Assembly (NCBI GenBank): GCA_018242545.1
Contig: JAFEBT010000003.1
Span: 1 to 62,553 of the forward strand
DNA length: 62,553 nucleotides
From: Pseudomonadota bacterium
Lineage (GTDB): Bacteria; Pseudomonadota; Alphaproteobacteria; 16-39-46
Direction: 5' to 3'
Shown here: positions 7,447 to 28,715 of the stretch, piece by piece
Position numbering within the stretch: the stretch's first letter is position 1
Layout of the letters: every line of letters starts with the position of its first letter
Translations under genes and position numbers: made by a program
Notes under the pieces: model-generated
The model's database searches: none
Seen by the model: the letters and a program-made list of their open reading frames with translations, nothing else
What the model was told of the DNA's origin: nothing

Positions 7447-8021
7447 TTAAAATTTATCAATATCCATCGGAGCTTCAAATAAAAAAGCAGAAAGAGGCGT
7501 ATATTGTATCGTTAAAAGATGATGAGGATCTTCAGGAACAGCGCCTTCTATTTTAACCACTTTTCCTATAAAAGAGCCTTCATCATTTGGAGATACAAAA
7601 TTAAATCTTCCTCTTGCTTCCTCCTCAAGTCGTTCTCTTGGCACAGGCCCAAGCCCAGCAGGTGCCCGAGGTCCCCCTTCCTCAATAGCCCAATATGTAT
7701 GTGAAACTTCCGGGGAAACCTTAGAAAGAAAATGCTGCAAGAATTGCTGACTTGTTGCAGAAAAGAAAAGATCTAAAAATCCGTCTCTCACCTCACGCAT
7801 TGGCGTCAAAGTAATAGAAAAACGGCATCCAACTGGAAATTTCTTATTAGGATCCCAAGCTGCATCATTTTCTTTCGTATAGACTCGTTTTAAAGAAGGT
7901 CCATCTCTTGTTGTTTCATAAGTTACCCCTAATATATCATCTCTTGTTTTAACACCTTGAACAGCATTCAGGGAAAAGACCAAACATCCAAAAAATATAA
8001 TTAAAAAACACGTTTAAACAT
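7447..8021 (-). pseudogene. Terminal-gene paralogue T1 (178-aa ORF 7447-7983) with an out-of-frame signal-peptide start
   Basis: The intact ORF starts at TTG 7983. An ATG at 8019-8021 reads MFKRVF then TAA. One extra base in the A6/T6 run at 8003-8008 would give MFKRVFLIIFFGCLVFSLNAVQG, a signal peptide, in frame. Paralogue of 22574-23165. Confidence 0.6.
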
Positions 8022-8169
8022 TTCCAATCTCCGATAAAATTTATAATCTCTTTTTACCCTATAGAGCTTTTCTTCTCTTTTCAATGCAAAAACAAGTATG
8101 TAAGAGTTCATAACAAATGAGACAAAAATCTCAACGAGCTCAAAGAGAAGAAAGTTGAATATACTGCAA

Positions 8170-8400
8170 AGGGGGGAGATCTTTCAAGTTACGATGAGGT
8201 CTGTAAGAGTTATATTTTGATAAAGCTTTGCGCAGAGCGGATTCCATGCCTCTGACAGAATCCTCAAGAAGATCTGATCGATTAAAAATTCTTCTCAAAA
8301 AACTCTATTAGCGCGTTCAACACCCCTGTTATATTGAAGTTTTTTAGGAGTAAGAACAATAAAGGGAATAGAAAGCTCAGAATATGCAATCCTTTGATCT
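8170..8400 (-). mobile_element. Degraded remnant of an rve-type (DDE integrase) transposase C-terminus
   Basis: Minus-strand translation reads LTPKKLQYNRGVERANRVF*EEFLIDQIFLRILSEAWNPLCAKLYQNITLTDLIVT*KISP. This follows the P-x-x-x-Q-x-NGKVER-x-NR-x-x-x-EEF...W...YN...RPH pattern but has two in-frame stops. Confidence 0.5.
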
Positions 8401-8565
8401 GCATAAAAGGCCTCCAAAGTTAGGGTTTTAAGACATTCCTATCTTAGAGGCCTTTTTGATCATAGAAAAGAGGGATGATCGTCGCTACGGTGCTATTTAA
8501 TGCGCGCTCCGCTCATCCCTCTTTTGTCTCATATGTGTTTGAACTCGGACATTCTTTAAATACTG

Positions 8566-9588
8566 CTACGACACACTATCATTTATATACCTTTCAACAA
8601 AAGCGTTCCATTCACTTTCTGAAATGCTTTCTCTAGGAATAAAAATCTCACTCTCTTCCCTAAAGTTCGGATCTTTCAATATTTCACTTGCTAGGCCTGC
8701 GGAAAGATTTCCTATCTCAATTATCCCATTATTATACCTGATAGAAGAAGCACCAAATTCTGCTAATTTTTGCTCAAACTCAAAGTTAAGAACCGCTGTT
8801 TTTATCCTAAGTCCAATGGAGGCATTAATCGGCAGTATTGTAAGTACATTCTTCAATAAAACCGGATCATAAATATGCGTCGCACCAGATCCATAATCAA
8901 TGCCCCAAAGATGAGCCCCTGATCTAATATCATATACTTCTTCCCCCATTTTCCCGACATTAAAGCTGAGCGCCCCAGCCAAAAATCTGTAGTCAACTTT
9001 TTTATCTTGAGGGAAAAATTTATTTAAGGTGTCAAAATCTTTTCCTCCTTTTTTTCCAAAAAAAGAAAACTGGCCCTTAACACCTTCCGAACGTTTATCT
9101 TTTAAAAATTTCTCAACTGAAAAAGCAGATAAATTATACTCATTACTTCCATTTCTTCCTCCAAACTCAGAAATAAGTTTCATGGCTTGAGGCGTAGAAC
9201 TTTTATCCAATTGAATATCATAGTAGACGTCACTTCTTATCTCATCATAGCTCGCTTCATACACATTTCTAAAAGCCTTAAGATCCGAACTCTTAAATTG
9301 AATTCCTTTCTCACTTCGAAATAATTCTGTCCATTTCTTTTGGCTTTGTTTTAGGTTTTCAAAAAATTTATGGCGGCTTCTTATCTTTCCAACTTCAAGG
9401 TCATGCCCAAAGTGAGAATCAGTTCTATTTTCTTTCTTTCTTTTTGGATTTTCTCCTGAAGCAACTAAAAAAGAGCTGAATACCATAAAAACTCCAAGAA
9501 AAGTTATTGTTACTTTATTGATTCTTATCATTGATCTTCTCGCCTGTTGTTTGTTCATTTCTTTCAAGTTTGGTTTTAATACTTTCAA
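8566..9588 (-). CDS. Secreted array paralogue m1 (closest to m12 and m3)
   Basis: The family leader MIRINKVTITFLGVFMVFSS starts at internal Met 21, so the likely true start is 9528. FFENLKQSQKKWTELFRSEKGIQFKSSD aligns with FFNNLKNKSKKWTEGFRTENGVHIRSSD of 24351-25388. Confidence 0.75.
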   Translation of the reverse strand: MKVLKPNLKEMNKQQARRSMIRINKVTITFLGVFMVFSSFLVASGENPKRKKENRTDSHFGHDLEVGKIRSRHKFFENLKQSQKKWTELFRSEKGIQFKSSDLKAFRNVYEASYDEIRSDVYYDIQLDKSSTPQAMKLISEFGGRNGSNEYNLSAFSVEKFLKDKRSEGVKGQFSFFGKKGGKDFDTLNKFFPQDKKVDYRFLAGALSFNVGKMGEEVYDIRSGAHLWGIDYGSGATHIYDPVLLKNVLTILPINASIGLRIKTAVLNFEFEQKLAEFGASSIRYNNGIIEIGNLSAGLASEILKDPNFREESEIFIPRESISESEWNAFVERYINDSVS

Positions 9589-9591
9589 AAA

Positions 9592-9717
9592 TCACTTACC
9601 CGCATGTGAAATCTGATTCTCTATGCCTTCTTCTTTCCCGGCTTCTAGACCTGAAAAGCAACCGATTGTAAACATCATCATCCCAATACCTGAGACCTTT
9701 TTATTTATATGTTTCAT
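9592..9717 (-). CDS. Possible 41-aa secreted or lipoprotein-like peptide (below the ORF-track cutoff)
   Basis: My own translation is MKHINKKVSGIGMMMFTIGCFSGLEAGKEEGIENQISHAGK. GGAGAAA lies upstream of the ATG and IGC is lipobox-like. It may instead be a gene remnant. Confidence 0.3.
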   Translation of the reverse strand: MKHINKKVSGIGMMMFTIGCFSGLEAGKEEGIENQISHAGK

Positions 9718-9827: not shown

Positions 9828-11093
9828 TTAAGGTCTTAATTTGAGGGTATCATATACGAGTTCGCCACCCTCTAATGATGTATTTAGGATATCTTCCCCT
9901 TGGGATCCAAACCACATTATGTCTCTCAATGTTTGGAAATCGTGCGGATGAAGAGTTTCAACGGTTAGTGCCGCACTGAGGGGACCTTCCGGTAAATTCA
10001 TGATTCTTAAAGCCTGTTCACCATTCAGACCTTTCAGGCCAAAGCCACCATTCTCAGTTCGGTAATAGGAAAGTTCTTCTTTAAGTGCAAAATCCAGAAC
10101 CTTAGGATACATTTCTGGCCAATCCATCTTAATTCTTGTGGGAGAATTTCTCTCGACTAAAGAAAATAAAATTGGCATAATTAGATGATAATGATTTGTT
10201 CTTAACGTTCTTCGATCAGAATCTACATAAGTATATCTGCCGATAGGATCCGACCATTCAATATCTCCATTCTTATAGTAATCTAGAATCATAGTGTCTG
10301 TTTGGTAATGCGTAAAGGCTCTGCCAAATGGATCTGATTCAAGATGAGAAAACCCATCAGGCGCGGCTGCATATGTCCTCCCCTGAAATTTTGCCTCAAA
10401 ACCTTTCAAAAAAGCCTTTGTCATATCCTCTTGCGTGATCCCCTTAACCCGAATAATTGCTCCTTTAGCAAGCGCTTTATTTTTTGAAAAATACGATATA
10501 GCGATGGGCCACCATTGTGCTCCCAAAAATATTCTCTTTCCATCTGGTGACCAACTTGGCGCCGCGTCTTTTATGCTTCCTTTTATAACTTCTGGCCCCT
10601 GAAATATCTCCGTTCTTCCGATTCTTTTAGGATCTTCAAGTGCAATTTTAGAGTCATAACCCTCCTCTAAATCAAGGAGCTGACGAACGAAGAATTCAGA
10701 AAACTTCTTTTGCATTTCTATTCTCTGCTCTTCTGGAACGGGTGTTTGAAATTCAATGCTTCCTGTTAAACGACCTCTCTCAAAAATATCTCTTTGAGGA
10801 ATTAATTTTTTGACACTTAACGCAAGATCTCCTTCGAAAACATGATTTTTTTGATCATAGATCCCCCTATCAGCGCTCTTTAAGTCTTCAATTAAAACAT
10901 ATCCAGCTCGAGGGGTAGAAAAACGATATACTTCTTTATAGTGTGAAAGATCTTGAGGAACAAAGCGAGAATCTGTTACAGCCAGGCGCATATCTTTTTT
11001 TTCAGGTTTCATTGCATTAAGAGCATCCACAGAAAAAATACCTGTCAAAACAACTATTCCAAATGAAAGTGTTATACTTTTAGTGAACTTCAT
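9828..11093 (-). CDS. Secreted protein m2: family leader on a non-family mature domain with one PD40-like motif
   Basis: Leader is MKFTKSITLSFGIVVLTG. The mature part lacks the array modules but contains APSWSPDGKRIFLG, which resembles a WD40-like PD40 beta-propeller repeat. Confidence 0.7.
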   Translation of the reverse strand: MKFTKSITLSFGIVVLTGIFSVDALNAMKPEKKDMRLAVTDSRFVPQDLSHYKEVYRFSTPRAGYVLIEDLKSADRGIYDQKNHVFEGDLALSVKKLIPQRDIFERGRLTGSIEFQTPVPEEQRIEMQKKFSEFFVRQLLDLEEGYDSKIALEDPKRIGRTEIFQGPEVIKGSIKDAAPSWSPDGKRIFLGAQWWPIAISYFSKNKALAKGAIIRVKGITQEDMTKAFLKGFEAKFQGRTYAAAPDGFSHLESDPFGRAFTHYQTDTMILDYYKNGDIEWSDPIGRYTYVDSDRRTLRTNHYHLIMPILFSLVERNSPTRIKMDWPEMYPKVLDFALKEELSYYRTENGGFGLKGLNGEQALRIMNLPEGPLSAALTVETLHPHDFQTLRDIMWFGSQGEDILNTSLEGGELVYDTLKLRP

Positions 11094-11266: not shown

Positions 11267-12514
11267 TTAGGAGAACTCGTCATCCCCTTCTAAAGACAGA
11301 ATCAGGACTCTTCCATCTTCTTCTCCTACAGGAACCAGAGCAGGAAACGCTTCATTAGATCTTATATTGCCATAATCATCCTTCCAAGATTTTTCTACTT
11401 CTATAAATTTATTAAAGGCTGGCCAAAAATTCTCTAATGAGTCTTTTTCTTTGAAATGAAATTCTCCTATTTCTTTTAGAAATGTTGCATCTGTCATTAA
11501 AGGTATAACATCTCCTGCGCGTATATTTTCCGCATGGACAATTCCGTTATACTCCTTAATAGAAGCATCCATTTCTTTCAGCTTCTCTAGAACATCAGGA
11601 CTTAGGCCTCTTTTAAATCTAACATCAATTCTTGCATCAACAGAGCCTGTTTGCATCAGTTCTTTGGCTAACCTTTGGTCAAAAATTGTTAAATTGTTAG
11701 CTTGAGGATTCCATTGCCACACGGCTCTTCCTCGTTCACGGTCATAACAAAATCCTCCTAGATCTCCAGAAGCAAGTATAAATCTGCGCGCATATAAGAG
11801 ATCATAATCTTTACCTATCAGAGCCCATTCGGGAGAAGCTATTTGATCGGTATATTTTAAATGCGTCTGTATATCACTAGGCCGAAGCGCAACAGGACGA
11901 CTCAAAGCCGCATAAAGCCCGGAGGTGGGCTCATCCAACCAAAGAATTTGGGGATTGACACCTAAGGCCCGGTCATAGTCTGCATGCTTCGCCATACCCA
12001 TTTGATCGAAAAGAAGTTGAGAGAAACCTTCATTTATTCCTTTTCCTTGAAGATATATGTCTCCTCTCACCAAGGAAGATCGTTTATCATTTAAAAAGGC
12101 ATCTATGGAACCTCGAGGTAGGACAAAGATATGATTTTCCACCTGTTTCCCATAATTTTTAAGTGCTGCTTTCGTTTGAAAAGAAGAGGTATCATCCGCC
12201 CTAATATAAGCTATAGCCCTTCTTTTATCTTCTAAAGAAAGTTTCCGATAAACCTTTTTAAATGTTTCAATATCAGAGGATTGAACCTCATAATGATCTC
12301 TGTCTTTTCTAAGTTGCATCCAAGGTCCATTCGCCATTTTTTTTAACTTTTCAAGAGCAGTTAGCTTAAATTTATCTTCGGTATCCATCTCATATCGATA
12401 TAGTGCATCATGTTCCGTTCCAAAAAGTTCAGCATTGAATTTCCCCCCTTTTAATGAAGCGTTGAATAAACAAAGAATACCGAAAGAGATGAATATAATT
12501 TTAGTAAATCTCAT
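11267..12514 (-). CDS. Secreted array paralogue m3
   Basis: Leader MRFTKIIFISFGILCLF. Module A is YEVQSSDIETFKKVYRKLSLEDKRRAIAYIR and module B is GDLGGFCYDRERGRAVWQW..LTIFDQRLAKELM. Only 2 nt separate it from m4. Confidence 0.75.
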   Translation of the reverse strand: MRFTKIIFISFGILCLFNASLKGGKFNAELFGTEHDALYRYEMDTEDKFKLTALEKLKKMANGPWMQLRKDRDHYEVQSSDIETFKKVYRKLSLEDKRRAIAYIRADDTSSFQTKAALKNYGKQVENHIFVLPRGSIDAFLNDKRSSLVRGDIYLQGKGINEGFSQLLFDQMGMAKHADYDRALGVNPQILWLDEPTSGLYAALSRPVALRPSDIQTHLKYTDQIASPEWALIGKDYDLLYARRFILASGDLGGFCYDRERGRAVWQWNPQANNLTIFDQRLAKELMQTGSVDARIDVRFKRGLSPDVLEKLKEMDASIKEYNGIVHAENIRAGDVIPLMTDATFLKEIGEFHFKEKDSLENFWPAFNKFIEVEKSWKDDYGNIRSNEAFPALVPVGEEDGRVLILSLEGDDEFS

Positions 12515-12516: not shown

Positions 12517-13497
12517 TTACTCTCCTGCTCCCTCATCGTCAAGCTCATCGAAGAGTTCATCCAAATAAAGCCGACTCTTTCTTTTCGAAATAACCCTATC
12601 AGAAACCGTTATGAAATAAGGATGCATGTTATAATCTTCCCTCGACATTCTATCAATCCAATTAACCGCTCCTTGCGCAGGCATGCTTACATCCAGAACC
12701 TCTCCATTATCTTTTAAAACTTCTGCATCAAAAAGCTTTAATTTCTCTCTCACGTCTTCTGTATTTCGAACAGTAAGAGCAATGCCTGTATTAGGATGGG
12801 CCTTTGCGATGTCATCAACTATTTTATAGGAAAGCATAGGATCATATATATTGACTATTCCTTCTGGTATATGGCGTTCCCATAATTTTCTTCCCTCCCC
12901 TAAGTTGTAACCCGCTTCTTTACCTTGCCCCCATGTATAAGCATAATCTCCAGTCAAAATTGCCTTTTTATAACCTTCTTCTTTCATTCTTTTCCATGGA
13001 GCTTTTCTCCAACCACTTTCTATAAATTCTAAATCAGCCCATGCTAAGCTATAATCCCGACAGACAGTAAAACCTGCAACACCCTCCCTATCTTCAAGAA
13101 GATCTTTTAATTTTCCTTCTTTTACTTTGAAATAAACCCCGTCTAATGTATCTGCATATGGCAGCAAGCGCGCTTTTACACCAGGAGAAACTTCTTTTGC
13201 GAAACGAAATTCAACGTTAACCTTCTCTTTTTCGGCTGGAGTTAATGATTTTAGAGCTTCTAAAATTTTAGGAGCGTCCGTTCCTTCAATCTTATTTTCT
13301 TCAAGATTAATTTTGACAAATGATGTTGCTTTTGTCTTTCTTTCATCAAGGCCAAAAAACGGCATTACTTCAGTTTTAAGCAAAGCAGCTTTTCGATGCT
13401 CGGCTTCTTTTTTCATTGCATCCACTGGGAACAAGGAAAAGGTATTTCCTAAAACGATCATACTTAAAGAAATTATTGTGATTTTGTTTCGCCTCAT
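12517..13497 (-). CDS. Secreted array paralogue m4 (closest to m13)
   Basis: Leader MRRNKITIISLSMIVLG. Module A is IEGTDAPKILEALKSLTPAEKEKVNVEFRF and module B is WGQGKEAGYNLGEGRKLWERHIPEGIVNIYDPMLSYKIV. Confidence 0.8.
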   Translation of the reverse strand: MRRNKITIISLSMIVLGNTFSLFPVDAMKKEAEHRKAALLKTEVMPFFGLDERKTKATSFVKINLEENKIEGTDAPKILEALKSLTPAEKEKVNVEFRFAKEVSPGVKARLLPYADTLDGVYFKVKEGKLKDLLEDREGVAGFTVCRDYSLAWADLEFIESGWRKAPWKRMKEEGYKKAILTGDYAYTWGQGKEAGYNLGEGRKLWERHIPEGIVNIYDPMLSYKIVDDIAKAHPNTGIALTVRNTEDVREKLKLFDAEVLKDNGEVLDVSMPAQGAVNWIDRMSREDYNMHPYFITVSDRVISKRKSRLYLDELFDELDDEGAGE

Positions 13498-13622: not shown

Positions 13623-14537
13623 TTACTTTTCTCGTTGTATTTCTTTATAGGCTTTCAGGGCCTCTTTCACTTTCAGAGAAGGAATTGCACTTGCTTCAAA
13701 AGAAATGGTAAAATCATCCTTCGCTTTTTTCTCTAACCCTCTAAGGACCTCCTCTGCTTTCATTTTTGACTTTCCGAAACCTGTAAACCCTTCTTTTTTA
13801 TCTCTTCCAATCATTTCTCGAGTATCTTTCGAACCCTCTTGTCCCCAAGAAATCTCGGCGTCAGGAGAAATCCTCTTAAGTATTTCTTTGGAAAGAGCCC
13901 TTCCATAAACAAAGATACGATTGTCTTCAGGTCTATAGGATGCAATTTTCTTTCCAGTTGAATCATAAAGATCCTCTATGTCTGCATTTCTTCCAGACCA
14001 ATAACTATCATGCACCATAATCTGGTCATATGGTTTTATGAAGGAACCCTCTCCTATAAAATTTGGTGTAAAAAGAACTTCTGGGCATCTAAATCCAACT
14101 CTCTTGATTGCTTTTTCAGAAACATCAGGATCCTGAAGTATCGCCCCAAAACCAAGCGCTGGTATGACATAATGATCTTTTTCAAAAGTTTCTCCCTGGG
14201 CTTCAAAGCGTGCTCGAAATTCAGGAGTAGTTTCTATAGGAAGATAAACCTCAACTCTTATTTTGTCTTTTTCGGAAGGAGACATCTTTCCAAGAGCTGT
14301 CATAAGACCTTTCATATCATTCCCTTCAACCCATTGAGTGTTTCTGTCATAAGCAAGATAAGGTTGCTTTATATCAAAAAAGAAACTTCCAACTCCCATA
14401 AAACCTGGTGATGCAAAAGAAGTTACGGCTCCGTTTCCATACATTTCTGTTTGACTCCCCTGCACTGCAGCAGAAGAAAGAACGCCTCCGATCACGAAAA
14501 TACCTAAAGAAAAAGCTGTGATTTTATTATATTTCAT
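13623..14537 (-). CDS. Secreted array paralogue m5 (closest to m14)
   Basis: Leader MKYNKITAFSLGIFVIGG. VEGNDMKGLMTALGKMSPSEKDKIRVEVYL is module A. The C-terminal FTISFEASAIPSLKVKEALKAYKE aligns with m14. Confidence 0.8.
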   Translation of the reverse strand: MKYNKITAFSLGIFVIGGVLSSAAVQGSQTEMYGNGAVTSFASPGFMGVGSFFFDIKQPYLAYDRNTQWVEGNDMKGLMTALGKMSPSEKDKIRVEVYLPIETTPEFRARFEAQGETFEKDHYVIPALGFGAILQDPDVSEKAIKRVGFRCPEVLFTPNFIGEGSFIKPYDQIMVHDSYWSGRNADIEDLYDSTGKKIASYRPEDNRIFVYGRALSKEILKRISPDAEISWGQEGSKDTREMIGRDKKEGFTGFGKSKMKAEEVLRGLEKKAKDDFTISFEASAIPSLKVKEALKAYKEIQREK

Positions 14538-14646: not shown

Positions 14647-15504
14647 TCAATTTCCCGGTTGTAAAGCTGTATCTGGAAACTTCATGTATTCTATTCCTCC
14701 TGAAGTCATGAACCCAAAAGCAAGATCCCCTACAGGTACATTTTCCATTTTCAAAGATTCTCCATCTATCGTATAAGAAATTCTTTTTTCATCTAATGTA
14801 GACTGAAACTCTTTGAGGGCATTTACAGAAACCACCTGATCTTCTGGCAAAATATCTATCATTTTCCGCGTTAATCCTTTCCCCGTTACAGTAACTTCTC
14901 CAGTGCCCAAATCATGAATAAGTCTGTCACCAGTTGCAGCATTGAACACAGTTTCCTTTCCCCGTCCGCGTGCAAAAACAACATCTCCCTTCCTAAGAAA
15001 AAAATCAAAGTCTTCATGTCCTCTAAACCATTGCGTCGCAGGCGCTATCTGGGGAGCCAGCATATATATTCCTAATTCAGGATGGCCCTTCCACTGTTTT
15101 ATAAATGCGTCAACCTCTTTTCCTTGAAGCTGAACGGTTTCTCCCTTTTTACGTAGGCCATATTTCCTTAAAAATTTTCGATCTTCAGAAGAGGCATTGT
15201 TATCCAAGCGTATTTCTACAGTAAGGTTTTTCCTTTGTTCAGATGATAAAGAAAAAAAGAGTTTTGAAAACCCATCAGGATCCGTTCCTTCTAATCTTTT
15301 CTCTGTTTTGTCCCAGTATAAATAAGGATTTTCTTTGAGTTTCTTAAAATCAAAAAAAGGCTTTTTGAAAGGGTTGATACTTTTTTCTCTAACTTCAACA
15401 TCCTTCTGTTTATCTTCTTCTTTTCCAGCCTCAAGACTTGCAAAACAAAAAGAAACGCCCCCCATGAGCATAAACACAGCAGTCGTCATCTTAAGATATT
15501 TCAT
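14647..15504 (-). CDS. Secreted array paralogue m6
   Basis: Leader MKYLKMTTAVFMLMGG. Modules seen are LEGTDPDGFSKLFFSLSSEQRKNLTVEIRL, GRGKETVFNAATGDRLIH and EFQSTLDEKRISYTIDGESL. Confidence 0.8.
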   Translation of the reverse strand: MKYLKMTTAVFMLMGGVSFCFASLEAGKEEDKQKDVEVREKSINPFKKPFFDFKKLKENPYLYWDKTEKRLEGTDPDGFSKLFFSLSSEQRKNLTVEIRLDNNASSEDRKFLRKYGLRKKGETVQLQGKEVDAFIKQWKGHPELGIYMLAPQIAPATQWFRGHEDFDFFLRKGDVVFARGRGKETVFNAATGDRLIHDLGTGEVTVTGKGLTRKMIDILPEDQVVSVNALKEFQSTLDEKRISYTIDGESLKMENVPVGDLAFGFMTSGGIEYMKFPDTALQPGN

Positions 15505-16826: not shown

Positions 16827-17771
16827 TTACATAGCTATATTTGCATTTGCATTTAAAAAATTTGCAATTTGTTTATCTATCTGCTCACTGATCATAACGT
16901 CAATAGAACTCCCATCCGTAAATCTTAGAGCATTGAGTGATTGAAGACCCTCTGCTGCAGGCACATCTTTTACATAAAAACCTGCTCCATTTTCTTCTTT
17001 GTAAACAAAGCCCAACCTCTTATTGCGCTCATTAAAAAGCAGATCATCCAATGCTTCAAATTTTATTTTAACACGTGCATTTGGATCCAGGTTCGCAAGA
17101 ACTTCTTTTGAAAGTATGGGATCCTTAATCCTCACAACACGCTCTTTATGAGAATATTCTATGATGGGTTTTCCAGTTTTCTTATCAAACAGAGACTCAG
17201 TATCTCCTGTAACGAAACCAAAATATCCAGCCCCTTCATAATATTGATCAAAATTTCCATCTTTTAATTTCTTTCCTCCCGCTACATATCCCCAAAAAAT
17301 GTCTTTTGGACAGTTAAATCTTAGAAAAGTTCTTGTTGGCAATTTGTAGAGGGTGTCAGACCATAAAGAGTTAAACTTCTCAGCCGGTACTGTATAAGCG
17401 CCCAATTCAGAAATATCTTTAAATGCTTCTAATTTTCCTTTGACTTCTGGAGCAGGAGAATATCCTTCTGGAATTTCAAACCGAATCTTTGTCTTCTTTT
17501 TTTCTTCCTCAGGGAGTAAAGCGATTACACTCCTCAAGGTCTTTAAATCTGTCCCTGATATCTCACCTTTTGACTTATCATACCTAAAATACTCTTTTTT
17601 CTTAAACTCTAACCATTCGGGGAGTACTTTTCCCGTGGCCTCTATATCGGAAGCCTGCATTGTTTGATTTCTAAAGTCTCTTCTTTCCATATCTACCTTT
17701 GCAGCATTAGAAGAGTCTCCCGCTAAAATTGCTATTCCGAAAGAGAAAATTGTAAATGTTTTCAGTTTCAT
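16827..17771 (-). CDS. Secreted array paralogue m8
   Basis: Leader MKLKTFTIFSFGIAILAG. Modules seen are ISGTDLKTLRSVIALLPEEEKKKTKIRFEI and GDTESLFDKKTGKPIIEYSHKERVVRIKDPILSKEVLANL. Confidence 0.8.
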   Translation of the reverse strand: MKLKTFTIFSFGIAILAGDSSNAAKVDMERRDFRNQTMQASDIEATGKVLPEWLEFKKKEYFRYDKSKGEISGTDLKTLRSVIALLPEEEKKKTKIRFEIPEGYSPAPEVKGKLEAFKDISELGAYTVPAEKFNSLWSDTLYKLPTRTFLRFNCPKDIFWGYVAGGKKLKDGNFDQYYEGAGYFGFVTGDTESLFDKKTGKPIIEYSHKERVVRIKDPILSKEVLANLDPNARVKIKFEALDDLLFNERNKRLGFVYKEENGAGFYVKDVPAAEGLQSLNALRFTDGSSIDVMISEQIDKQIANFLNANANIAM

Positions 17772-21080: not shown

Positions 21081-22079
21081 TTAAGCTTCAAAAGAATTGT
21101 ATCCAGGTGATCCAAAACCGGTTTCAATGAATAAATTCCTCAATCTTTCAGCATCTTGACTGTTCTGAAAAGCGATATTTGAACGCATTATATTGTCTTT
21201 GAAGAAGTCACTATATCCTGGCTCAAACCATTTTTCATAATCATAATTATACCATTTTGTTCTAAGAAGACCATTCCCATCTATATCGTAAACAACATTC
21301 CAGTCATTTAGTTTTTGTTTGACTTCGCCAATATTTTTGAAGGTTACTTCAAAAGGATCTTTTAAATTGTGATAACTCCAATAAGCGACCCATTTTAAAG
21401 TTTCGTAATCATATATTTTTATAAATTTCTCTGCAGGAACATATTCCCAAAGTTTTTGTCCTGTTTTTGCGTCATAAGCGGTCTCTTTATTTTTTTCAGT
21501 TGCGAGAACTTTGTCAGGAGTTTTTAGGATAGAGGTAACACCATCAGGAACGAAATCTGTATGAGCGAATATTTTTATCTTCTTTTCAGGGTCAGCATCA
21601 TAAGACCATCTAAAAGTTACGTTTCTTTCCTCTAATTTGCGTTGCGCCTCTTTATCCTTTAAAAGTTCATGGATCTTTTCTTTATCAACATAGAAGGTCT
21701 TTCCTTCCACTCTGCCATATTTTTCAACAAAATTGTTCTTTCCCACGTCTTGCCACACTAACCTAAGGTCATCATCTTTTGCACCTGTTTGATCTCTCCA
21801 CAACTCATAATTCCTACAAAGCTCTATCCAATTATTACCTGTAACGAATATTCTCCTGTTCTTTTTTTCTGCCTTTATCCATCGAACGTCTCTCTTTTTA
21901 GTAATTTGACCTTCATACATAGCTCCCACGTCATCTTCTTTTGAAAACTCTATATTCGCTGGAGCTTTTCTTCTTAGAGTATCTTTGATTTCTGGCGCTG
22001 CCTTAAGTGTCTCTGCTGCCAAAGAAATTGTAAGAAAAAGAGAGCCTAGGGTTGTTACTGTATGTTTATTAAGTTTCAT
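21081..22079 (-). CDS. Secreted array paralogue m10
   Basis: Leader MKLNKHTVTTLGSLFLT. Modules seen are EKNKETAYDAKTGQKLWEYVPAEKFIKIYDYETL and EVKQKLNDWNVVYDIDGNGLL. Confidence 0.75.
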   Translation of the reverse strand: MKLNKHTVTTLGSLFLTISLAAETLKAAPEIKDTLRRKAPANIEFSKEDDVGAMYEGQITKKRDVRWIKAEKKNRRIFVTGNNWIELCRNYELWRDQTGAKDDDLRLVWQDVGKNNFVEKYGRVEGKTFYVDKEKIHELLKDKEAQRKLEERNVTFRWSYDADPEKKIKIFAHTDFVPDGVTSILKTPDKVLATEKNKETAYDAKTGQKLWEYVPAEKFIKIYDYETLKWVAYWSYHNLKDPFEVTFKNIGEVKQKLNDWNVVYDIDGNGLLRTKWYNYDYEKWFEPGYSDFFKDNIMRSNIAFQNSQDAERLRNLFIETGFGSPGYNSFEA

Positions 22080-22223: not shown

Positions 22224-22340
22224 TTATAACAATGAGTTCCCCCTCCTCAATTTCAGCTTCAGCTTCGCCAAACCCCTCAAAGGGAAAGCCGCGAGAACGA
22301 TAATACTTAAATAAATTCTGGTAATTTTATTGAATTTCAT
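22224..22340 (-). CDS. 38-aa signal-peptide sORF heading unit A; possibly a decayed copy of the 28402-28602 ORF
   Basis: My translation is MKFNKITRIYLSIIVLAAFPLRGLAKLKLKLRRGNSLL. After AAFP, another frame reads FEGFGEAEAEIEEGEL..., which parallels AALPFSFV...AEDEIG in the 66-aa ORF. Confidence 0.35.
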   Translation of the reverse strand: MKFNKITRIYLSIIVLAAFPLRGLAKLKLKLRRGNSLL

Positions 22341-22452
22341 ATGTTTTCTCCGTGTTTATTGTTTTTTATTTTATTATTTTTGGTCTTTATTGTTTTTGTT
22401 TTTCTAATTTAGAATATACTAATTTTTAGAGATTGGCACGCTTAAAAAAACA
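22341..22452 (-). promoter_or_regulatory. Conserved upstream leader, copy A (repeat of 28603-28715); candidate promoter plus A-rich 5' UTR of unit A
   Basis: Aligns by eye over its whole length with the region upstream of 28602. Shared blocks include ttggtctttat, tttttctaatt, atatactaatttttaga and cttaaaaaaaca. The minus strand carries TTAAGC-N18-TAGTAT(ATT). Confidence 0.45.
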
Positions 22453-22500
22453 GTAAAGGGATCAAAATCCGGAAAATAAGGTTATGTTTCAAGTGACTAT

Positions 22501-22520
22501 CCACGGGTTAATACCCGTGG
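22501..22520. other. Perfect 8-bp hairpin between the end of unit B and the leader of unit A
   Basis: In ccacgggttaatacccgtgg the stem CCACGGGT pairs with ACCCGTGG around a 4-nt loop. No U-tract follows on either strand, so it is not a canonical intrinsic terminator. Confidence 0.4.
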
Positions 22521-22573: not shown

Positions 22574-23165
22574 TTAGTCAACTTCCATAGGAGCTTCAAA
22601 TGCAACCGTAAGAGGCGTGTATTGAAGCGTTAAAAAATGGTGAGGATTTTCAGGAGTATCCTCTTCTATTTTAGCTATTCTTCCTTTAAACACCCTTCCA
22701 TCGCTTGCACCCAAATCAAATCTTCTTTTTGCTTCTTCTGCTATTCTTCTATAATCTGCTGCTGGGTCTTGGTTAGCACCCATTCTAATTACATCTTGCA
22801 CAAAAACGTCCTCTTTAAAGATCCAAAATGTATGAGGCTTTTCTGGGGAAACTTTGGAAAGAAAGTGTTGAAAGAAATTCAAATGCAAAGGTCCACTAAA
22901 GAAAAGCTCTAAAATTTCTTTTTCAATACCTTCCTGAACGGGGGTTAAGGTAAGAGAAAATCTGCTTTCTATTGGAAATTTCCTCTCAGGATCCCAATGT
23001 GCGTGTCTTTTTTTCACATAGGCACGTTTTAAAGAGCGACCTATTTCCTGACTTTCATAAGTTAATTCTAATAATCCATCGTGTATTTTCACACAAAGAA
23101 CATTATGGAAAAAAAGACAACACAGGCAAAAAAAGGCAAATGAAAAAATACGATTAAACTTTCAT
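22574..23165 (-). pseudogene. Terminal-gene paralogue T2 (172-aa ORF 22574-23092) with an out-of-frame signal-peptide start
   Basis: The ORF frame stays open upstream of GTG 23092 as KFNRIFSFAFFCLCCLFFHNVLC, a signal peptide with no in-frame ATG. The ATG at 23163-23165 reads MKV then stop. Loss of one A from its AAA would give MKFNRIFSF... in frame. Confidence 0.6.
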
Positions 23166-23238: not shown

Positions 23239-24329
23239 CTACCTCAGGAAAAAGCGACCACTTAGGGCAATACCCACAGAAACACCCTCAAAAACAGCTG
23301 AAGCTATACTATCTGAAACTATAGCAGCATCCTTTCCATTCCTATGTAAGATGTGAAAGGCTTGCTCAGGACGTAAGTTAGGCAATACGAGGTGCCCTGT
23401 TTCTCCAAGAGAATAAGAAAGCTCATATCTTTTCATCATACCTCTGACTTCTGGATAGTCGAAAAACTCTAGGTTGATCCTTGCCTCCTTATTCGTGTCT
23501 TTCAATAACCTTATGTGTCTTTGAATTTCTTGAAAGTCATTGGTGCGATAGATTTTTTTAACGGGGTCAAAATATCTATACTTTCCTGTAGAATCATCCC
23601 TTAAATATACCCATCCCTCATGATTGTTAACCTCCATCAAAGGGCCTTTTCTATAAATTTTTAGAGAAAAAGGGTGCCCTTGAGGAACAGCATAAAAGAA
23701 AGAGTTTAAAAGATCCTTTTTCTTATCTCGTCCCTCCCCTACCCCTATAGAATCCGGATAACGTTTATCAATTCCTATCAAATGATCAAGCCAGAAATTA
23801 TTTTCCGGCCCCCAAAAAGCTGTGGGTATAAGTTTAAAAGTGACCCTTTCAGAAAGATTTTTATTTTCTGAAATAAATTTCAAAACCGCAGGGAGGTTCT
23901 TAGGGTCTATAGCAACTTCCCTTTTATCAGGAGAAACTCTCCCTCCGTGTCTTTCGAGCCATATCATTTCCACTTCTTTCAGGGTAAACATAAAACGAAA
24001 TGTTCCTTTGGACTCAGGTATAAAGATCTCTTTTCCATCATATACTGTTTTGAAATCGTCTCCTGTTATTTCTTTTGCACCAGGATTCCATGCAAGAAAT
24101 TTTCCAGTTTTAAGATCTTCTACTCTTATATTTCCGCTTGAGTCTTTAAAAAAATGCTTCGCACTATCAAAAGACAGAGGTTTTTTTCTTTAGCGAGGTC
24201 TTCAAACTTTCTGGCTTCTTTTTGCCTCACCGTATTTTTTTCTTTATCAAGTCCAGCTTCTATAGATGTTGCTGAAAAAGTTTTTAAAATAAGAAGTCCA
24301 AGAGAAAGTGTTGTTGTATTGAGTTTCAT
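23239..24329 (-). pseudogene. Array paralogue m11, split by a frameshift in an A7 tract
   Basis: ORF 24126-24329 encodes the leader MKLNTTTLSLGLLILK...AKEK. The frame of ORF 23239-23991 is open upstream to 24189 (KKPLSFDSAKHFFKDSSGNIRVEDLKTGKF...). One extra base in the run at 24181-24187 fuses the two. Confidence 0.75.
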
Positions 24330-24350
24330 AAGATATCTCCCATGTTTTCG

Positions 24351-25388
24351 TTAAGGATTTTTTTCTTCGCTTATCGCGTTAGCTTCTAAAAAGGTGTTAG
24401 AAGATATGCCCGCGTTCCCTTCAAGCACGGGTTGCTCATTCAATTTACGCTGATTTATGTATTCCTGGAATACCTCCAGCAGGTGCTCTTTTGTCATACT
24501 TTCTTGTTGAAAATAAACTTCTGGAGACGCCCCTGCCTGTCGAATATCCAACACCATCCGCATAAGGTCTCGCCGAAGGCCACTTACTTCCATAATATCC
24601 TTATGATGCGTAACAGATGCGCCTTCTTCTATCAGCTTTCTCTCAAGCTCGAGATCTCTTTTTTGTATTCTAAATCCAACAGGTGCCTGAGGCTTTATTT
24701 TTTGAAAAGCTCTTAGAGCGAAATCCTGATCATGAAAGATCACCCACTTTGATCCACTATCAATCTGCCAAAGTTCTTTTCCTCTTCTTACATCATAGCC
24801 CGCTTCTTTTAAGGGACCAGTAATAAGAGCATATTCATCTGTCAAAAAAACATGATTAAATGCTTTGTCTCCCAAGAAAAACTTATCTGAGAAATCAGAA
24901 CCAACCGGTGTTGGTGCCCAAATAGAAAATTCTCTTCCTTCTTTTAACCATCCATTTTTTATAAGGACATCAAAGGAAGGATAAGGCAATTTCCACAAGC
25001 CCTTTTGATCTTTCATTCCATGTTTTTTAATAAATTTTTTTCCGTCACCAAACCCATGCGCGTCCAATTTAATTTTAAATTTAGCCTTTTTTTTAATCTC
25101 TTCAGGAACTGACCTATAAAATCTTTCAAATTCAAAGGGATCTGAACTTCTAATATGAACCCCATTTTCTGTTCGGAAGCCTTCTGTCCATTTTTTTGAC
25201 TTGTTTTTTAGGTTGTTAAAAAATTCCTGAGGGGTTTTTGACTCTGCCTTTGGGACCTTCTCCTCGATGGGACCATAAATTATTTCTCTCTTTTCTCCCT
25301 CAGGATAGTGTTCTGATGCCTTTAAAAAAGGACTGAATACCGTACAAACTCCAAAAGAAAGAAGGATGATGTTAGATGTTTTCATCAT
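24351..25388 (-). CDS. Secreted array paralogue m12 (closest to m1)
   Basis: Leader MMKTSNIILLSFGVCTVFS. Modules seen are FFNNLKNKSKKWTEGFRTENGVHIRSSDPFEFERFY and GPLKEAGYDVRRGKELWQID. It overlaps the end of m13 by 17 nt. Confidence 0.8.
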   Translation of the reverse strand: MMKTSNIILLSFGVCTVFSPFLKASEHYPEGEKREIIYGPIEEKVPKAESKTPQEFFNNLKNKSKKWTEGFRTENGVHIRSSDPFEFERFYRSVPEEIKKKAKFKIKLDAHGFGDGKKFIKKHGMKDQKGLWKLPYPSFDVLIKNGWLKEGREFSIWAPTPVGSDFSDKFFLGDKAFNHVFLTDEYALITGPLKEAGYDVRRGKELWQIDSGSKWVIFHDQDFALRAFQKIKPQAPVGFRIQKRDLELERKLIEEGASVTHHKDIMEVSGLRRDLMRMVLDIRQAGASPEVYFQQESMTKEHLLEVFQEYINQRKLNEQPVLEGNAGISSNTFLEANAISEEKNP

Positions 25389-26352
25389 AAACCTCCCTGC
25401 CGTTCTTGACGTTTTTTACAAATCCTTCTTGAAATAAGGCAGCAGGAAATTCAACCCTCCCTTTAAATTCTTCGCCCCCGTATGCAAACCATCCATATGC
25501 TTCCTCTAAAGAGAACTCTTTATAAAAGGTTCCATCATTTCCTCTTCTAAACGCTTCAATGCGGTTCTCTGTTAATTTTATTTCTGCTTTAGGCTCACCT
25601 TCAGCAATTAAACGAACAGGGACATTCGGAAAGCGATCTTTAAATTTCTCAATCATCTCAAGTGCAAGCGTTCGATTATAGATGCGAACCTTTCCGTCTT
25701 TAACAGAATGCTCCCAGATTTTTTTTCCAGATTTTCTATCATAAAAAGCCTCTTTTCCCGCATCCCAAGCTAAAACACTCATATCATTCACAATATAATA
25801 TCCATATTTCTGTGCTTCTAAATCGCGCCTTATTTCGAAGTCTTTAGAAGTTTCTAGACCTGGAAGCTGACCCTGACCCATAGCTTCGCGCGGATAGGTG
25901 TGCCCACGCAAAAACCAAAAGAAGATCTGACGAATGTTACTTATTTTGTGTGTCTTTAAAAAATCCTCAAAATCGTCGGGTTTTAGGGCAAAATTATATC
26001 CATCCCTCGTTTGTGCAAAGGGTTTATAAATTCTTTGAAGTTCAGGAGAAGCTTTTTGGTTAAGTGTAAATCCAAGGCGAACATTCTTTTTTTCTTCAGG
26101 AGACATTCGTTTTAAAGCTTTTTCAATTTCAGCGACATTTGTTCCTTTAAGTTCTTTTCTTTTCTGATCAACCTCAATATAAGAGCCTTTTCTAAGCTCA
26201 TTTAAAGCAATGAAATGTTCTTTCTCTTTTTTTTGAGCTTGATCACTTCTTTCCATTTCGGCTTCTGTTGCTTTTGTACCTTGCACAAAAGAAAGAGATC
26301 CACTTAAGATAAAGACACTTAAGGACAGTGTTGTTATATAATTTATTTTCAT
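25372..26352 (-). CDS. Secreted array paralogue m13 (closest to m4)
   Basis: Leader MKINYITTLSLSVFILSG. Modules seen are LKGTNVAEIEKALKRMSPEEKKNVRLGFTL and AWDAGKEAFYDRKSGKKIWEHSVKDGKVRIYNRTLALEMI. Confidence 0.8.
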   Translation of the reverse strand: MKINYITTLSLSVFILSGSLSFVQGTKATEAEMERSDQAQKKEKEHFIALNELRKGSYIEVDQKRKELKGTNVAEIEKALKRMSPEEKKNVRLGFTLNQKASPELQRIYKPFAQTRDGYNFALKPDDFEDFLKTHKISNIRQIFFWFLRGHTYPREAMGQGQLPGLETSKDFEIRRDLEAQKYGYYIVNDMSVLAWDAGKEAFYDRKSGKKIWEHSVKDGKVRIYNRTLALEMIEKFKDRFPNVPVRLIAEGEPKAEIKLTENRIEAFRRGNDGTFYKEFSLEEAYGWFAYGGEEFKGRVEFPAALFQEGFVKNVKNGREVYDENI

Positions 26353-26464: not shown

Positions 26465-27373
26465 TTAAAGACGTTTTTTTGCTTTATAAGCAGTCAAAGC
26501 TTCTTTCATTTTTGAAGCAGAAATTTCACTCCTTTGAAAAGAAATATCAAAAGAAAGCTCTGGTTTTTCTTCCATCATTTTAAGCAAATCCCTTGCTTTT
26601 ATTGGAGTTTCTTTGAAATTTTTATCTTCCTCATTTTTATGAGGCATCATTTTCTGTTCTTCTGATCGAACAGACTTTTTCCAAGCTACAAACGTCTCAG
26701 GATTAGCTCTTTTAAGAAATTCCCTAGCAAAATCAGCTCCATAAATGGAAATATGATCGTTGGTTGGATTATACGAAGCAACCTGTTTTCCATCTTGAGT
26801 ATAAAGAAATTCTCCCGCGTGATTCATCCCATATAATAAGCCGCCCTGCCATATAATCCGATCAAATGCGTCGCTATCAACTTTTATTATACCCAAAATT
26901 TTGGTGAAAATAGGTTCTGAACATACAAATCGAATTCTCATGGGTTTTCTATCTCTGTTCTCACCATCTAACTTTTGATACTTTTTTACAAAATCATCTC
27001 CTGTCATGACAGAAAAGTCATTGATAGATGGTCTTCTGATGACCCCTTGGCTTAATTCAGGAGAAAGTACTTGATCATAATATACATTAATTTTTAGATT
27101 TTCCTTTTCTGAAGGAAGTAACTTATCAAAGCCTTTTACAAAAGTTTGTATATCATTCCCTTCAACGCGCTGGTTCTTTCTATCAAAGATCATATAAGGT
27201 TGGGCTGGATTCACAAACGCCTCACCCAATACCAACGGCTCCAAAGACACAAGAATGGTAAAATCCGCTCGGTCCTCCCTGCCTGCATGAAAATCTTTAA
27301 GAGGAGCCGAAGAAAGAGGTGCTCCAAAGGCAAGAAAACTTAAAGTAAAAGCTCTGATTTTAGTGTACTTCAT
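26465..27373 (-). CDS. Secreted array paralogue m14 (closest to m5)
   Basis: Leader MKYTKIRAFTLSFLAFG. Modules seen are VEGNDIQTFVKGFDKLLPSEKENLKINVYY and FDISFQRSEISASKMKEALTAYK. Confidence 0.8.
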   Translation of the reverse strand: MKYTKIRAFTLSFLAFGAPLSSAPLKDFHAGREDRADFTILVSLEPLVLGEAFVNPAQPYMIFDRKNQRVEGNDIQTFVKGFDKLLPSEKENLKINVYYDQVLSPELSQGVIRRPSINDFSVMTGDDFVKKYQKLDGENRDRKPMRIRFVCSEPIFTKILGIIKVDSDAFDRIIWQGGLLYGMNHAGEFLYTQDGKQVASYNPTNDHISIYGADFAREFLKRANPETFVAWKKSVRSEEQKMMPHKNEEDKNFKETPIKARDLLKMMEEKPELSFDISFQRSEISASKMKEALTAYKAKKRL

Positions 27374-27439
27374 TGAATCTCTCCTTATGTTTTAACGTTA
27401 TCTTTTCATTCCCGTATAAGACGTCATTTCAAAAAATCT

Positions 27440-28281
27440 TTAAGGATATCTTCTTGTTTCAATTGAATTATATGAACCATCTTCTAATATGCACAATCTT
27501 TCCAACCTTTCTTGTAACTGACTCTTTGCCCAGGGATCGAGCTCATGCTTAGGTAAAACAAATTCCATATCCTCTCCCCAGTCCGTCCGTAGGACATCTT
27601 TAAGCTCTACATTTTTTGCATACCAATATCCTTTTGGATCAAAAGCCCCTGTGATGCCTACTTTCTCAAATATCCCTGGCATCATACCATCCGCGTTTTG
27701 GCTTTTAATCCTTATCTCCCCTCTTATGTCTAAAGGGAGCCCTTTAAGAACGTCTCTTACAAACTTTCCATTTAAAACAAGTTGCCCTGCTCCAAAATTG
27801 TTCTCAAAGTATTTTTTGCCACTGGTATTATATCAAAGTATTTTCTGCCACTGGTATTATAATAAAACTCTCCTCTATCATTGCGCACCAAGACATACCC
27901 ACTGCCGAGAAACCAACATGGGGTTACAATTTTCTTATTCAAATCCTCTAAAATATATGGATAAATAAGTTTTTCAAACGCTTCATGTCCAATTCCTTTT
28001 ATGCGATACTGCGCTGCTCCTATTCCGGGAACCCCTATGAGATCAGGACTTCTAATTTCGTGCGCCTTAAAATCGAATATTGCCTTGGCGTTTTTCTCCA
28101 ATTTTTCATCAGAAGGAAAATAAGAGAGAGCCCTATTCAAATCTTTAGCCTGTTGTTCCATAAAAGTAGAATTTTTGTGCTTACCGATTGATTCCTGTGC
28201 CATAGCCTTTAAAGAAGAGAAAAAAGATCCCATTATAAGCACAGTTATTAAAGAGACGTACGTCAATATTTTGAATTTCAT
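27440..28281 (-). pseudogene. Array paralogue m15 (shorter relative of m7), split by a 29-bp tandem duplication
   Basis: ORF 27772-28281 has the leader MKFKILTYVSLITVLIMG and FPSDEKLEKNAKAIFDFKAHEIRSPD. ORF 27440-27685 aligns with the m7 C-terminus. The downstream frame is open up to 27832 and reads YNTSGKKYFENNFGAGQLVLNGKF... Confidence 0.8.
27809..27866. repeat. Imperfect 29-bp tandem duplication (2 copies)
   Basis: Copy 1 is gtattttttgccactggtattatatcaaa (27809-27837) and copy 2 is gtattttctgccactggtattataataaa (27838-27866). 29 is not a multiple of 3, and each copy encodes (Y)YNTSG(K/R)KY in a different frame. Confidence 0.9.
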
Positions 28282-28401
28282 GTTAACCCCCCTTGATTAT
28301 TTAGCTGCCCATGACCTTGAAATAAATTATATTCTCTTTGGACAGCTTCACCGCCGATGCTTGAATCCAACGCATCTACAACCCCTTCCTCATTTTCATC
28401 C

Positions 28402-28602
28402 TCAAAAAATAAGTCTGACCCTATGAAAATTTGCAATTTCAAGTTGTGGAACTCTCCAAGAGTTGCCTATTTCATCTTCAGCCATTTTTGCTGTTTCAGG
28501 CCTTAGAGACGCTCTATTTTCCATCGCCCTCACAAAAGAAAAAGGAAGAGCTGCAAGCATAAGCACACTTAAAGAAATCTTGTTTATCTTATTATACTTC
28601 AT
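28402..28602 (-). CDS. 66-aa signal-peptide ORF heading unit B
   Basis: MKYNKINKISLSVLMLAALPFSFVRA-MENR... carries the family leader and GGGAGAAAAA precedes the ATG. After its stop, another frame (FEDENEEGVVDALDSS...GGLT) runs on to end in an ATGA overlap with the m15 start at 28281. Confidence 0.45.
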   Translation of the reverse strand: MKYNKINKISLSVLMLAALPFSFVRAMENRASLRPETAKMAEDEIGNSWRVPQLEIANFHRVRLIF

Positions 28603-28715
28603 GGGTTTTTCTCCCTGTTTATTCTTTTTTTATTTTCTTATGTTTGGTCTTTATGGTTATTTTTCTAATTCTTATAATATACTAATTTTTAGATTTTAAC
28701 ACTCTTAAAAAAACA
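28603..28715 (-). promoter_or_regulatory. Conserved upstream leader, copy B (repeat of 22341-22452); candidate promoter plus 5' UTR of unit B
   Basis: Has the same blocks as copy A. The minus strand carries TTAAGA-N18-TAGTAT(ATT). Confidence 0.45.

Follow-up and report, generated by a model that had tools for sequence, protein, structure and literature searches.

Location and Gene Content of the Island

The window analysed in the present study (62,553 nucleotides, positions 1 to 62,553 of contig JAFEBT010000003.1, assembly GCA_018242545.1) belongs to an uncultured alphaproteobacterium and contains a chromosomal island of about 24 kb (7.4–31.8 kb) with about 20 genes. The island holds 14 paralogues of an orphan protein family, the genes m2 and m11, which encode another type of protein, two terminal genes, T1 and T2, and a gene for a PNPase-like protein; it includes two arrays, units B and A, which carry paralogous genes in nearly the same order, each behind a copy of a conserved non-coding leader. 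Every large open reading frame (ORF) at 7.4–31.6 kb is located on the minus strand, and all the island features below lie on this strand and are given in the direction of transcription. The coding strand of the island is purine-rich (plus-strand GC skew of −0.15 to −0.26 and AT skew to −0.2 at 8.5–31.6 kb), with skews stronger than in most of the flanking sequence.

An earlier reading of this DNA, referred to below as the original prediction, had divided the island into two units. Units A and B are real, but a third leader followed by a signal-peptide head is present at 31796–31596 beside pgm; this pgm-side end lay outside the range of the original prediction and has an orthologous copy in relatives. 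All the elements described there, from the two leaders with their short ORFs to the genes, the 8-bp hairpin and the terminator, were recovered on the minus strand, in place or a few bases off.

The slot of the island, between pgm and infA-maf-sua5, is fixed within a small clade of uncultured alphaproteobacteria, since the relatives share the pgm flank on one side and infA-maf-sua5 on the other. The pgm gene ends at 31804, with leader C directly downstream; among the related contigs (designated here with L numbers), L054 and L080/L081 have their first family gene behind pgm, and that of L079 comes after a cut upstream gene, 85% identical to the PGM of the window. At the opposite border, infA-maf-sua5 is preceded by family genes or an m2-like gene in L001, L055 and L058, and the infA-upstream flank common to relatives starts at about 7412, at the unit A terminator. 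The gene content of the island varies between related genomes. The synteny comparison proposed earlier therefore shows the same flanking slot, but it stops short of the whole island, as the contigs of relatives all break within it. The window and L080 have 87.9% nucleotide identity over 4.2 kb (NTP-transferase, UDP-glucose dehydrogenase, pgm and leader), and the flanks of L055 and L058 are near-identical to each other. The nearest genome match by Sua5 (78% identity) is the metagenome-assembled genome (MAG) "Alphaproteobacteria bacterium 16-39-46"; a literature search on 16-39-46, the nearest named relative, found no papers.

A search with ARAGORN revealed no tRNA at 7–32 kb, and the GC content of the island (0.33–0.41) is the same as in the rest of the contig. 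Of the usual marks of a mobile island (tRNA or direct-repeat borders, an intact integrase and atypical composition), the integrase is represented only by a putative remnant. The lack of a tRNA, of an intact integrase and of a compositional anomaly, together with the slot kept in relatives, argues that this is not a recently acquired mobile island.

Gene Order in the Three Units

Unit C starts with leader C (31677–31796, nhmmer E = 1e-34), followed by m16 (30834–31676), the 14th family member (258 bits with the family profile), and is closed by a terminator-like hairpin of 17 pairs with a T run (30660–30699). A broken AAA-ATPase_like/PDDEXK_9 gene, consisting of three ORF pieces (28777–30484), separates unit C from unit B; Pfam searches matched its N-terminal and middle pieces to PF09820 (E = 9e-29 and 4e-3, respectively) and its C-terminal piece to PF08011 (E = 1e-15), and the contigs of relatives end before this position. 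Unit B includes leader B (28603–28722, E = 8e-28), the short ORF sORF-B (28402–28602), m15 (27440–28281), m14 (26465–27373), m13 (25372–26352), m12 (24351–25388), m11 (23239–23991, or 23239–24329 with an upstream signal-peptide-only ORF) and T2 (22574–23165). A perfect 8-bp hairpin with a 4-nt loop (22501–22520) lies between T2 and leader A.

Unit A is longer and contains leader A (22341–22460, E = 1e-29), sORF-A (22224–22340), the family members m10 (21081–22079, 234 bits) and m9 (19853–21010, 214 bits), the PNPase-like gene (17888–19756), m8 (16827–17771), m7 (15637–16770), m6 (14647–15504), m5 (13623–14537), m4 (12517–13497), m3 (11267–12514), m2 (9828–11093), a signal-peptide-only ORF of 41 residues (9592–9717), m1 (8566–9588, with a likely real start at ATG 9531), a putative transposase remnant (8140–8417), T1 (7447–8021) and an intrinsic-terminator-like hairpin (7396–7436).

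Collinearity of Units A and B

All-against-all BLASTP searches revealed six reciprocal best pairs between the units: T1/T2 (E = 1e-47, 46–51% identity), m5/m14 (E = 1.7e-42, 32%), m1/m12 (E = 7e-32 to 7e-35, 29%), m4/m13 (E = 1e-23, 25%), m7/m15 (E = 1e-11 for m7 with each of the two m15 pieces and 3e-23 as chained tblastn) and m2/m11 (E = 4e-8, 33% over 85 residues). The first five of these are exactly the pairs named in the original prediction, which had missed m2/m11. In transcription order, unit B reads leader, stub, m15, m14, m13, m12, m11, T2, and its partners in unit A, taken in the order of unit B, are leader, stub, m7, m5, m4, m1, m2, T1. The identical gene order claimed for the two units holds for the six pairs plus the leaders, all in one orientation, but with one adjacent swap, m12-m11 versus m2-m1. 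According to our own combinatorics, the chance of no more than one inversion is 6/720 = 0.008 for the six pairs and 7/5040 = 0.0014 if the leaders are counted as a seventh marker.

A neighbour-joining tree with 200 bootstraps, the kind of test suggested with the original prediction, pairs the counterparts as expected: m5 with m14 (100%), m7 with m15 (100%) and m1 with m12 (71.5%), the last pair being nested in a 99% clade with m3 and an outside homologue, P0013. The m13 protein joins a clade of m4 and its L055 orthologue with 95.5% support. The m8 protein is nearest to m5/m14, and m6 has orthologues outside the window (P0017 and gene 2 of L058) and no counterpart in unit B. The closest paralogues lie 11–16 kb apart and not side by side; the adjacent genes m5-m4 are mirrored by m14-m13 with the same offset of about 12.85 kb, and three unrelated protein types (the family, m2/m11 and T1/T2) are duplicated in register together with the non-coding leader. 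Ordered pairs at such distances and unrelated types in register argue for a block (tandem) duplication, after which genes were gained, lost or left to decay, so that the old segmental duplication of a multi-gene cassette, proposed earlier, is borne out by order, orientation and the tree of closest paralogues. Local duplication has taken place too, as m8 is found near m5, m3 near m1, and m9 is grouped with m10.

The coding pairs have diverged to 48–66% nucleotide, 28–51% amino-acid and 31–59% third-position identity, and some members of unit B are damaged. The m15 product lacks about 100 residues of m7 (approximately 94–197), and its frameshift (27680–27840) coincides with a short tandem duplication, YNTSGRKYF/YNTSGKKYF. 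The m11 product has no signal peptide of its own; m11 and the signal-peptide-only ORF upstream of it (24126–24329) are probably one broken gene.

The Conserved Leader

Leaders B (28603–28715) and A (22341–22452) are identical at 95 of 109 positions (87%). Depending on the alignment, their identity ranges from 82% to 87%, compared with 59–66% to leaders of the head type described below. The score of the local alignment is 131 versus 25 ± 4 for shuffled sequences, and none of 500 shuffles reached it; the 18-mer TCTAAAAATTAGTATATT has exact matches in the window at leaders A and B only, with 0.3 expected by chance. Leader C is 85% identical to the pgm-side leader of L080 and only 59–61% identical to leaders A and B.

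A leader profile built from six leaders and used with nhmmer found full-length copies at the three sites in the window and at the pgm-side heads of L054, L079 and L080/L081 (E across copies from 1e-18 to 1e-37). Copies outside the profile input were matched as well (E = 8e-18 to 4e-20); they lie downstream of an m6-like gene within the islands of L056, L057 and L058. By sequence, the eight leaders can be divided into a head type (window C, L054, L079 and L080) and an internal type (found at window A, window B, L056 and L058), the latter having TTTTTTAAG, AATTAGAAA, AAAGACCAAA and AATAAACACGGAG in common. Leader C, with its head, is the ancestral, pgm-side copy, which four related contigs carry at the same place. 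The genes behind the leaders have 28–51% identity as paralogues and 31–40% as orthologues, and among the other paralogous spacer pairs, five of seven are at the level of shuffled sequences and two are weakly similar (9 and 5 of 500 shuffles); the leader is thus far better conserved than the genes behind it or the other spacers. A scan of metagenomes with the pattern of the leader 3′ part, AATAAACASGGAGAAAAN{3,4}ATGAA, gave 20 loci, all of them chance matches without a family gene.

The two best-conserved blocks of the leader, one GTGTTAAT-like and the other represented by AAAAATGATATTCT or TTAGTATATT (TGnTAT.. / TATATT), lie at a distance from each other that resembles that between a −35 region and an extended −10 element, and they are followed by an A-rich stretch of about 75 nt and a GGAG ribosome-binding site. 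Judging by these sequence features, the leader appears to consist of a promoter and an unstructured, A-rich 5′ untranslated region. RNAalifold found no conserved pairs in the eight leaders, single-sequence folding energies are not unusual (z-scores of −1.2 to −1.5), and the Rfam search gave no match for the leader either at the gathering threshold or at E ≤ 1; features of a structured cis-regulatory RNA (riboswitch, attenuator or known leader) were not found. The pattern of conservation points to a regulatory element.

The layout of the arrays is that of operons. All the genes are on one strand, the gaps within arrays range from −14 to 173 nt, the scan found no intergenic terminator-like sites within units A and B, and such sites lie only at unit ends, behind T1 and behind m16. 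The end of unit B is marked by a hairpin without a U tract. We infer that units A and B are transcribed polycistronically.

Short ORFs and the m16 Gene

In the original prediction, both units begin with the same leader and short ORF. The comparison revealed no distinct, conserved small gene at these sites; the ORFs are 5′ stubs of family genes, with nothing in common past approximately codon 25. Only the first 22 or so codons, a signal peptide, are common to sORF-A and sORF-B, which matches the profile at positions 1–39 only and continues in an unrelated tail. The ORFs behind internal-type leaders comprise 66 residues in window B, 38 in window A, 79 in L056 and 20 in L058, where a fragment of a P0013-like gene comes next; the ORF behind leader C has 26 residues and ends at an in-frame TGA, with the rest of m16 intact. 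The residues AME(N)R, which follow the signal peptide of m16, are retained in sORF-B, ME(N)R being common to C and B.

The signal peptide of m16, MDFTKITTVSLAAFFLTSSLAFAMER, is encoded by 26 codons from ATG 31676. A single in-frame TGA (31596–31598, context TGA-C) occurs right after it, the remaining 253 codons being open, and the body of m16 is an intact ORF of 247 residues at 30834–31577 (P0014). The TGA may have arisen by a recent nonsense mutation, or else it acts as a leaky stop. The m16 protein is 35–40% identical to the first island gene product of four related contigs (40% amino-acid identity to the L080 orthologue) and groups with P0015/P0016 at 100% bootstrap. Of the copies of this head gene, that of L054 has its full length, those of L079 and L080/L081 contain frameshifts, and that of the window is interrupted by the TGA.

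The ORFs at 9592–9717 and 24126–24329 are two further instances that consist of a signal peptide only. The module made up of the ribosome-binding site and the signal peptide is common to the family, m2 and the PNPase-like protein, and homology between copies repeatedly stops 40–70 nt into this module, a pattern suggesting that gene heads have undergone recombination and decay.

Terminal Genes and Unit Ends

T1 and T2 are reciprocal best matches, in agreement with their description as paired terminal genes, but both ATG codons from which they were thought to start (8021 and 23165) are out of frame. In T1, one T added to the T6 run at 8003–8008 joins MFKRVFLIIFFGCLVFSLNAVQG to the body; in T2, the removal of one A from ATGAAAG restores MKFNRIFSFAFFCLCCLFFHNVLC in frame with the body. 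The frame breaks, which are independent of each other, lie a few codons in (7984–8021 and 23093–23165), and the bodies are otherwise intact; the repaired N-termini are hydrophobic and signal-peptide-like. Programmed frameshifting was considered and rejected: the shift required is −1 in T1 and +1 in T2, the sequences at the two sites differ, and shifts of opposite sign make a shared recoding signal unlikely. The breaks may represent pseudogenes, sequencing errors or internal starts. A profile of T1/T2 found only the two proteins of the window among 5.8e9 proteins, and the 259 matches of T1/T2 patterns in genome contigs included no relatives. The AlphaFold2 model of T1, made from a two-sequence alignment (predicted local distance difference test (pLDDT) 50.8), was too poor for a fold search.

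The terminator reported after T1 was confirmed as a hairpin followed by T8. The 8-bp hairpin between the units, CCACGGGT-ATTA-ACCCGTGG, is also present as described but has no U tract and hence is not a canonical terminator. The spacer at the end of unit B folds at −27.2 kcal/mol (z = −2.5), and transcription may read through from unit B into leader A. The hairpin was also considered as a tRNA fragment or an integration site; the ARAGORN search, which found nothing at 7–32 kb, gave no indication of this.

Proteins Encoded in the Island

The family proteins are about 300 residues long and have putative Sec-type signal peptides; a positively charged N-terminus, a hydrophobic region and a small-residue cleavage site are visible in every one of the 12 aligned full-length members, and also in m2 and the PNPase-like protein. 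These features of the sequences suggest that the proteins are exported. The m2 protein has only the signal peptide in common with the family, and a homologue of it is encoded beside infA in L001. No Pfam or NCBIfam match was found for the family, and a word-indexed search with the family profile returned only proteins of the window; the relatives came from an exhaustive profile search of 1.84e9 representative proteins, in which the 22 hits comprised 13 proteins of this contig, 7 outside homologues and 2 spurious repeat proteins. AlphaFold2 modelling of m5, based on a 19-sequence alignment, predicted a mixed alpha/beta structure with a confident core (pLDDT 77.8, predicted TM-score (pTM) 0.73). 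The Foldseek search with this model found no neighbour below E = 0.1, the best values being 0.36 (PDB) and 0.16 (BFVD).

The PNPase-like protein has a family-type signal peptide followed by RNase_PH and RNase_PH_C domains only, with no KH or S1 domain. It scores below the cut-offs of both NCBIfam models of PNPase, NF008805 and TIGR03591 (306.8 versus 471, and 304.0 versus 525). It is 32–37% identical to PNPase cores over about 530 residues, the best matches being bacterial PNPases, including alphaproteobacterial ones. Compared with aligned PNPase, GSSSM is replaced by GAADS and DMDFK by DMNFT, and RREIGHG is absent; with motifs so altered, the protein is probably not an active phosphorylase. 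A search of 5.8e9 proteins, with this protein as a probe for islands in relatives, revealed no orthologue of this form, only ordinary PNPases at no more than 37% identity.

The rve transposase remnant reported between m1 and T1 was also recovered, with a match to rve_3 (E = 2.2e-5) after bridging one frameshift; its score of 24.6 bits lies below the Pfam cut-off of 26.5, and only the C-terminal 65 or so residues match.

Other Features of the Contig and of Related Contigs

The remaining part of the contig carries ordinary housekeeping genes, glyQ and glyS being separate genes, and the Rfam matches in the whole contig are limited to one tRNA and the small signal recognition particle (SRP) RNA (40943–41016 and 45807–45900). 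In L055, a Fic and helix-turn-helix (HTH) gene pair, absent from the window, is located between sua5 and glyQ (4116–5151). L056 contains an insertion sequence (HTH and Transposase_29, 1740–4048) directly after the internal leader and its ORF. Nucleotides 1–100 of L001 match the end of this insertion sequence at 98%, which indicates that the same element borders the island in another genome; elements of this type may be the cause of assembly breaks in the island. The first 106 or so nucleotides of L058 are unlike the leader region that precedes a near-identical gene in L079, reflecting either a different junction in the population or an assembly join.

Origin of the Island

These observations are probably best explained by a single hypervariable island, residing in a fixed slot and containing three leaders, where units B and A are tandem copies of a leader-headed cassette. 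The island would be read from three copies of the leader of about 120 nt, with leader C heading m16 and leaders B and A heading two long same-strand arrays. The ancestral cassette may have comprised the leader, the stub of a first gene, m7′, m5′, m4′, a gene of the m3/m1 type, m2′ and T′. After its duplication, which we infer to have been a single event, the proteins would have diverged very fast, to the present 28–51% identity; unit A would have acquired or retained m10, m9, the PNPase-like gene, m8, m6 and one more gene of the m1/m3 type, and unit B would have lost members or let them decay. An insertion sequence may have left its remnant next to m1, and the short ORFs would be the remains of the first gene behind each leader. 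An equal age of all the pairs can be assumed only with caution: sites are saturated, rates vary by gene, and the relative date suggested by the leader contradicts that from the m4/m13 tree.

Several observations weigh against this explanation. The order m12-m11 versus m2-m1 requires one extra rearrangement. By position, m12, which overlaps m13 by 14 nt, is the counterpart of m3, which follows m4 after a 2-nt gap, and by sequence it is nearest to m1 and next to m3; this conflict implies at least one extra rearrangement or a rate anomaly. No homologue or remnant of T1/T2 was found in relatives. The contigs of relatives all end inside the island, which leaves this contig as the sole complete copy. 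Scans with the sigma-70 consensus flag none of the three leaders. Five genes, m15, m11, m16, T1 and T2, are broken, so part of the island may no longer function. Finally, leaders and genes disagree on the timing. Leaders A and B (82–87%) resemble each other more than either resembles the internal leader of L058 (about 75%), suggesting that they split after the lineage of the window had separated from that of L055/L058; on the other hand, m4 groups with its L055 orthologue at 97.5% bootstrap with m13 outside, suggesting that the gene duplication was earlier. This tension might come from purifying selection and some concerted evolution of the leaders, from a long-branch artefact affecting m13, or from a stepwise origin.

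A stepwise origin, in which an older block duplication took place without the leader and the internal leader was copied or gene-converted later, seems unlikely but is the most serious of the alternatives. Both halves of the timing conflict fit it, as do the sharp ends of the homology between leaders A and B, at about −120 and about +70, and the spacer comparison, where most of the other pairs have no detectable similarity. However, the differences between leaders A and B (13–18%) occur all along the sequence and thus mark out no recent conversion tract, and the placement of m13 could be a long-branch effect in the neighbour-joining tree. Moreover, the orthologous leaders of window C and L080 have kept 85% identity and the genes behind them 40%, which means that purifying selection alone could keep leaders A and B as similar as they are.

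It is rather improbable that the leader and the signal-peptide mini-ORF compose a regulatory leader-peptide module which tunes the downstream array in the manner of a secretion monitor, or a dedicated, portable control module, copied to the head of each array of a fast-diversifying family with a new fold, which couples array expression to the state of the export machinery. In the secretion monitors SecM, VemP and MifM, a short upstream ORF with a signal or membrane-targeting sequence at its start precedes export-related genes. By analogy, the short ORFs of the island start with a signal peptide ahead of genes for putative exported proteins; every ORF directly behind an internal-type leader is short, and the mini-ORF is cut just after the signal peptide in all four known internal-type copies and in the head copy of the window, where the TGA leaves the rest of the gene intact. 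Nevertheless, the differing lengths and the lack of anything in common past the signal peptide leave no candidate arrest motif; unlike in the three monitors, a conserved C-terminal arrest segment is lacking, the ORFs have the appearance of decayed gene heads, and the downstream genes are cargo and not components of the translocon. The head gene of L054 is full length, ordinary frameshifts that differ in position account for the truncations in L079 and L080/L081, the ORF of L056 abuts an insertion sequence, and the leader lacks a conserved RNA structure through which translation might act on transcription.

Independent duplications or transpositions of single genes, with the order of the pairs arising by chance or through selection on order, seem slightly less credible still. 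The family does grow locally, and unit A contains an integrase remnant; yet six pairs with one swap are improbable by chance, the adjacent pairs m5-m4 and m14-m13 keep the same offset, and three unrelated protein types lie in register with a non-coding leader. An assembly artefact joining two strains or loci, with frameshifts due to sequencing errors, is very improbable: although the contig is apparently metagenomic, the related loci all come from MAGs or metagenome contigs whose assemblies break inside the island, and the T1 frameshift lies in a homopolymer, the units are too diverged in protein sequence for strain variants or collapsed repeats, 20 of 20 tested flanking housekeeping ORFs match Pfam profiles end to end, and the break in m15 is a short tandem duplication, not a homopolymer error.

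Comparison with Known Systems and Significance

In Borrelia, a conserved upstream box precedes divergent paralogous genes of exported proteins in the 'upstream homology box' (UHB) family (ospE/ospF/elp, erp); these are lipoprotein genes carried on cp32 prophage plasmids, mostly in one- or two-gene units. The island is similar in that its leader is better conserved than the coding sequence, and it differs in its chromosomal location, its arrays of 6 to 13 genes, the absence of a lipobox and the lack of sequence similarity. The upstream box of this family is supported by the titles of three papers listed in PMC10016077, namely Marconi et al. 1996, Sung et al. 1998 and Sung et al. 2000.

According to the part of PMC7789307 that deals with it, the omp-1/p28 locus of Ehrlichia consists of 14–23 paralogues arranged in tandem over more than 26 kb, with tr1 and secA as flanking genes and a set of paralogues that varies between species. 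The island resembles this locus, as described there, in size, in the number of paralogues, in having the same flanking genes in relatives and in its variable content; the placement of all genes on one strand was seen in the island only. Unlike the Ehrlichia proteins, which are outer-membrane porins, the island family has no Pfam match, and its predicted structure is mixed alpha/beta, not a beta-barrel; the same part of that paper describes no block duplication headed by a repeated leader. The island belongs to neither the omp-1/p28 nor the UHB family. The PNPase-like protein, in turn, has two RNase PH domains, as PNPase does, but differs from PNPase in its family-type signal peptide, the absence of KH and S1 domains and its degenerate motifs.

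Block duplication is an ordinary route of gene-family growth, and its occurrence here is in itself unsurprising; what is new is the gene family, the conserved leader and the PNPase-like protein. The last of these is an oddity, as it combines a PNPase core and a signal peptide with catalytic motifs that have degenerated. The family is essentially unknown, with 7 homologues outside the contig in 1.84 billion representatives and a confident predicted model that has no structural neighbour. Non-coding DNA conserved at 82–88%, compared with 28–51% for the genes behind it, points to strong diversifying or relaxed selection on the predicted exported proteins. Nothing in this analysis shows host association; should the organism live with a host, the genes of the island would be obvious candidates for a role in the interaction with it.

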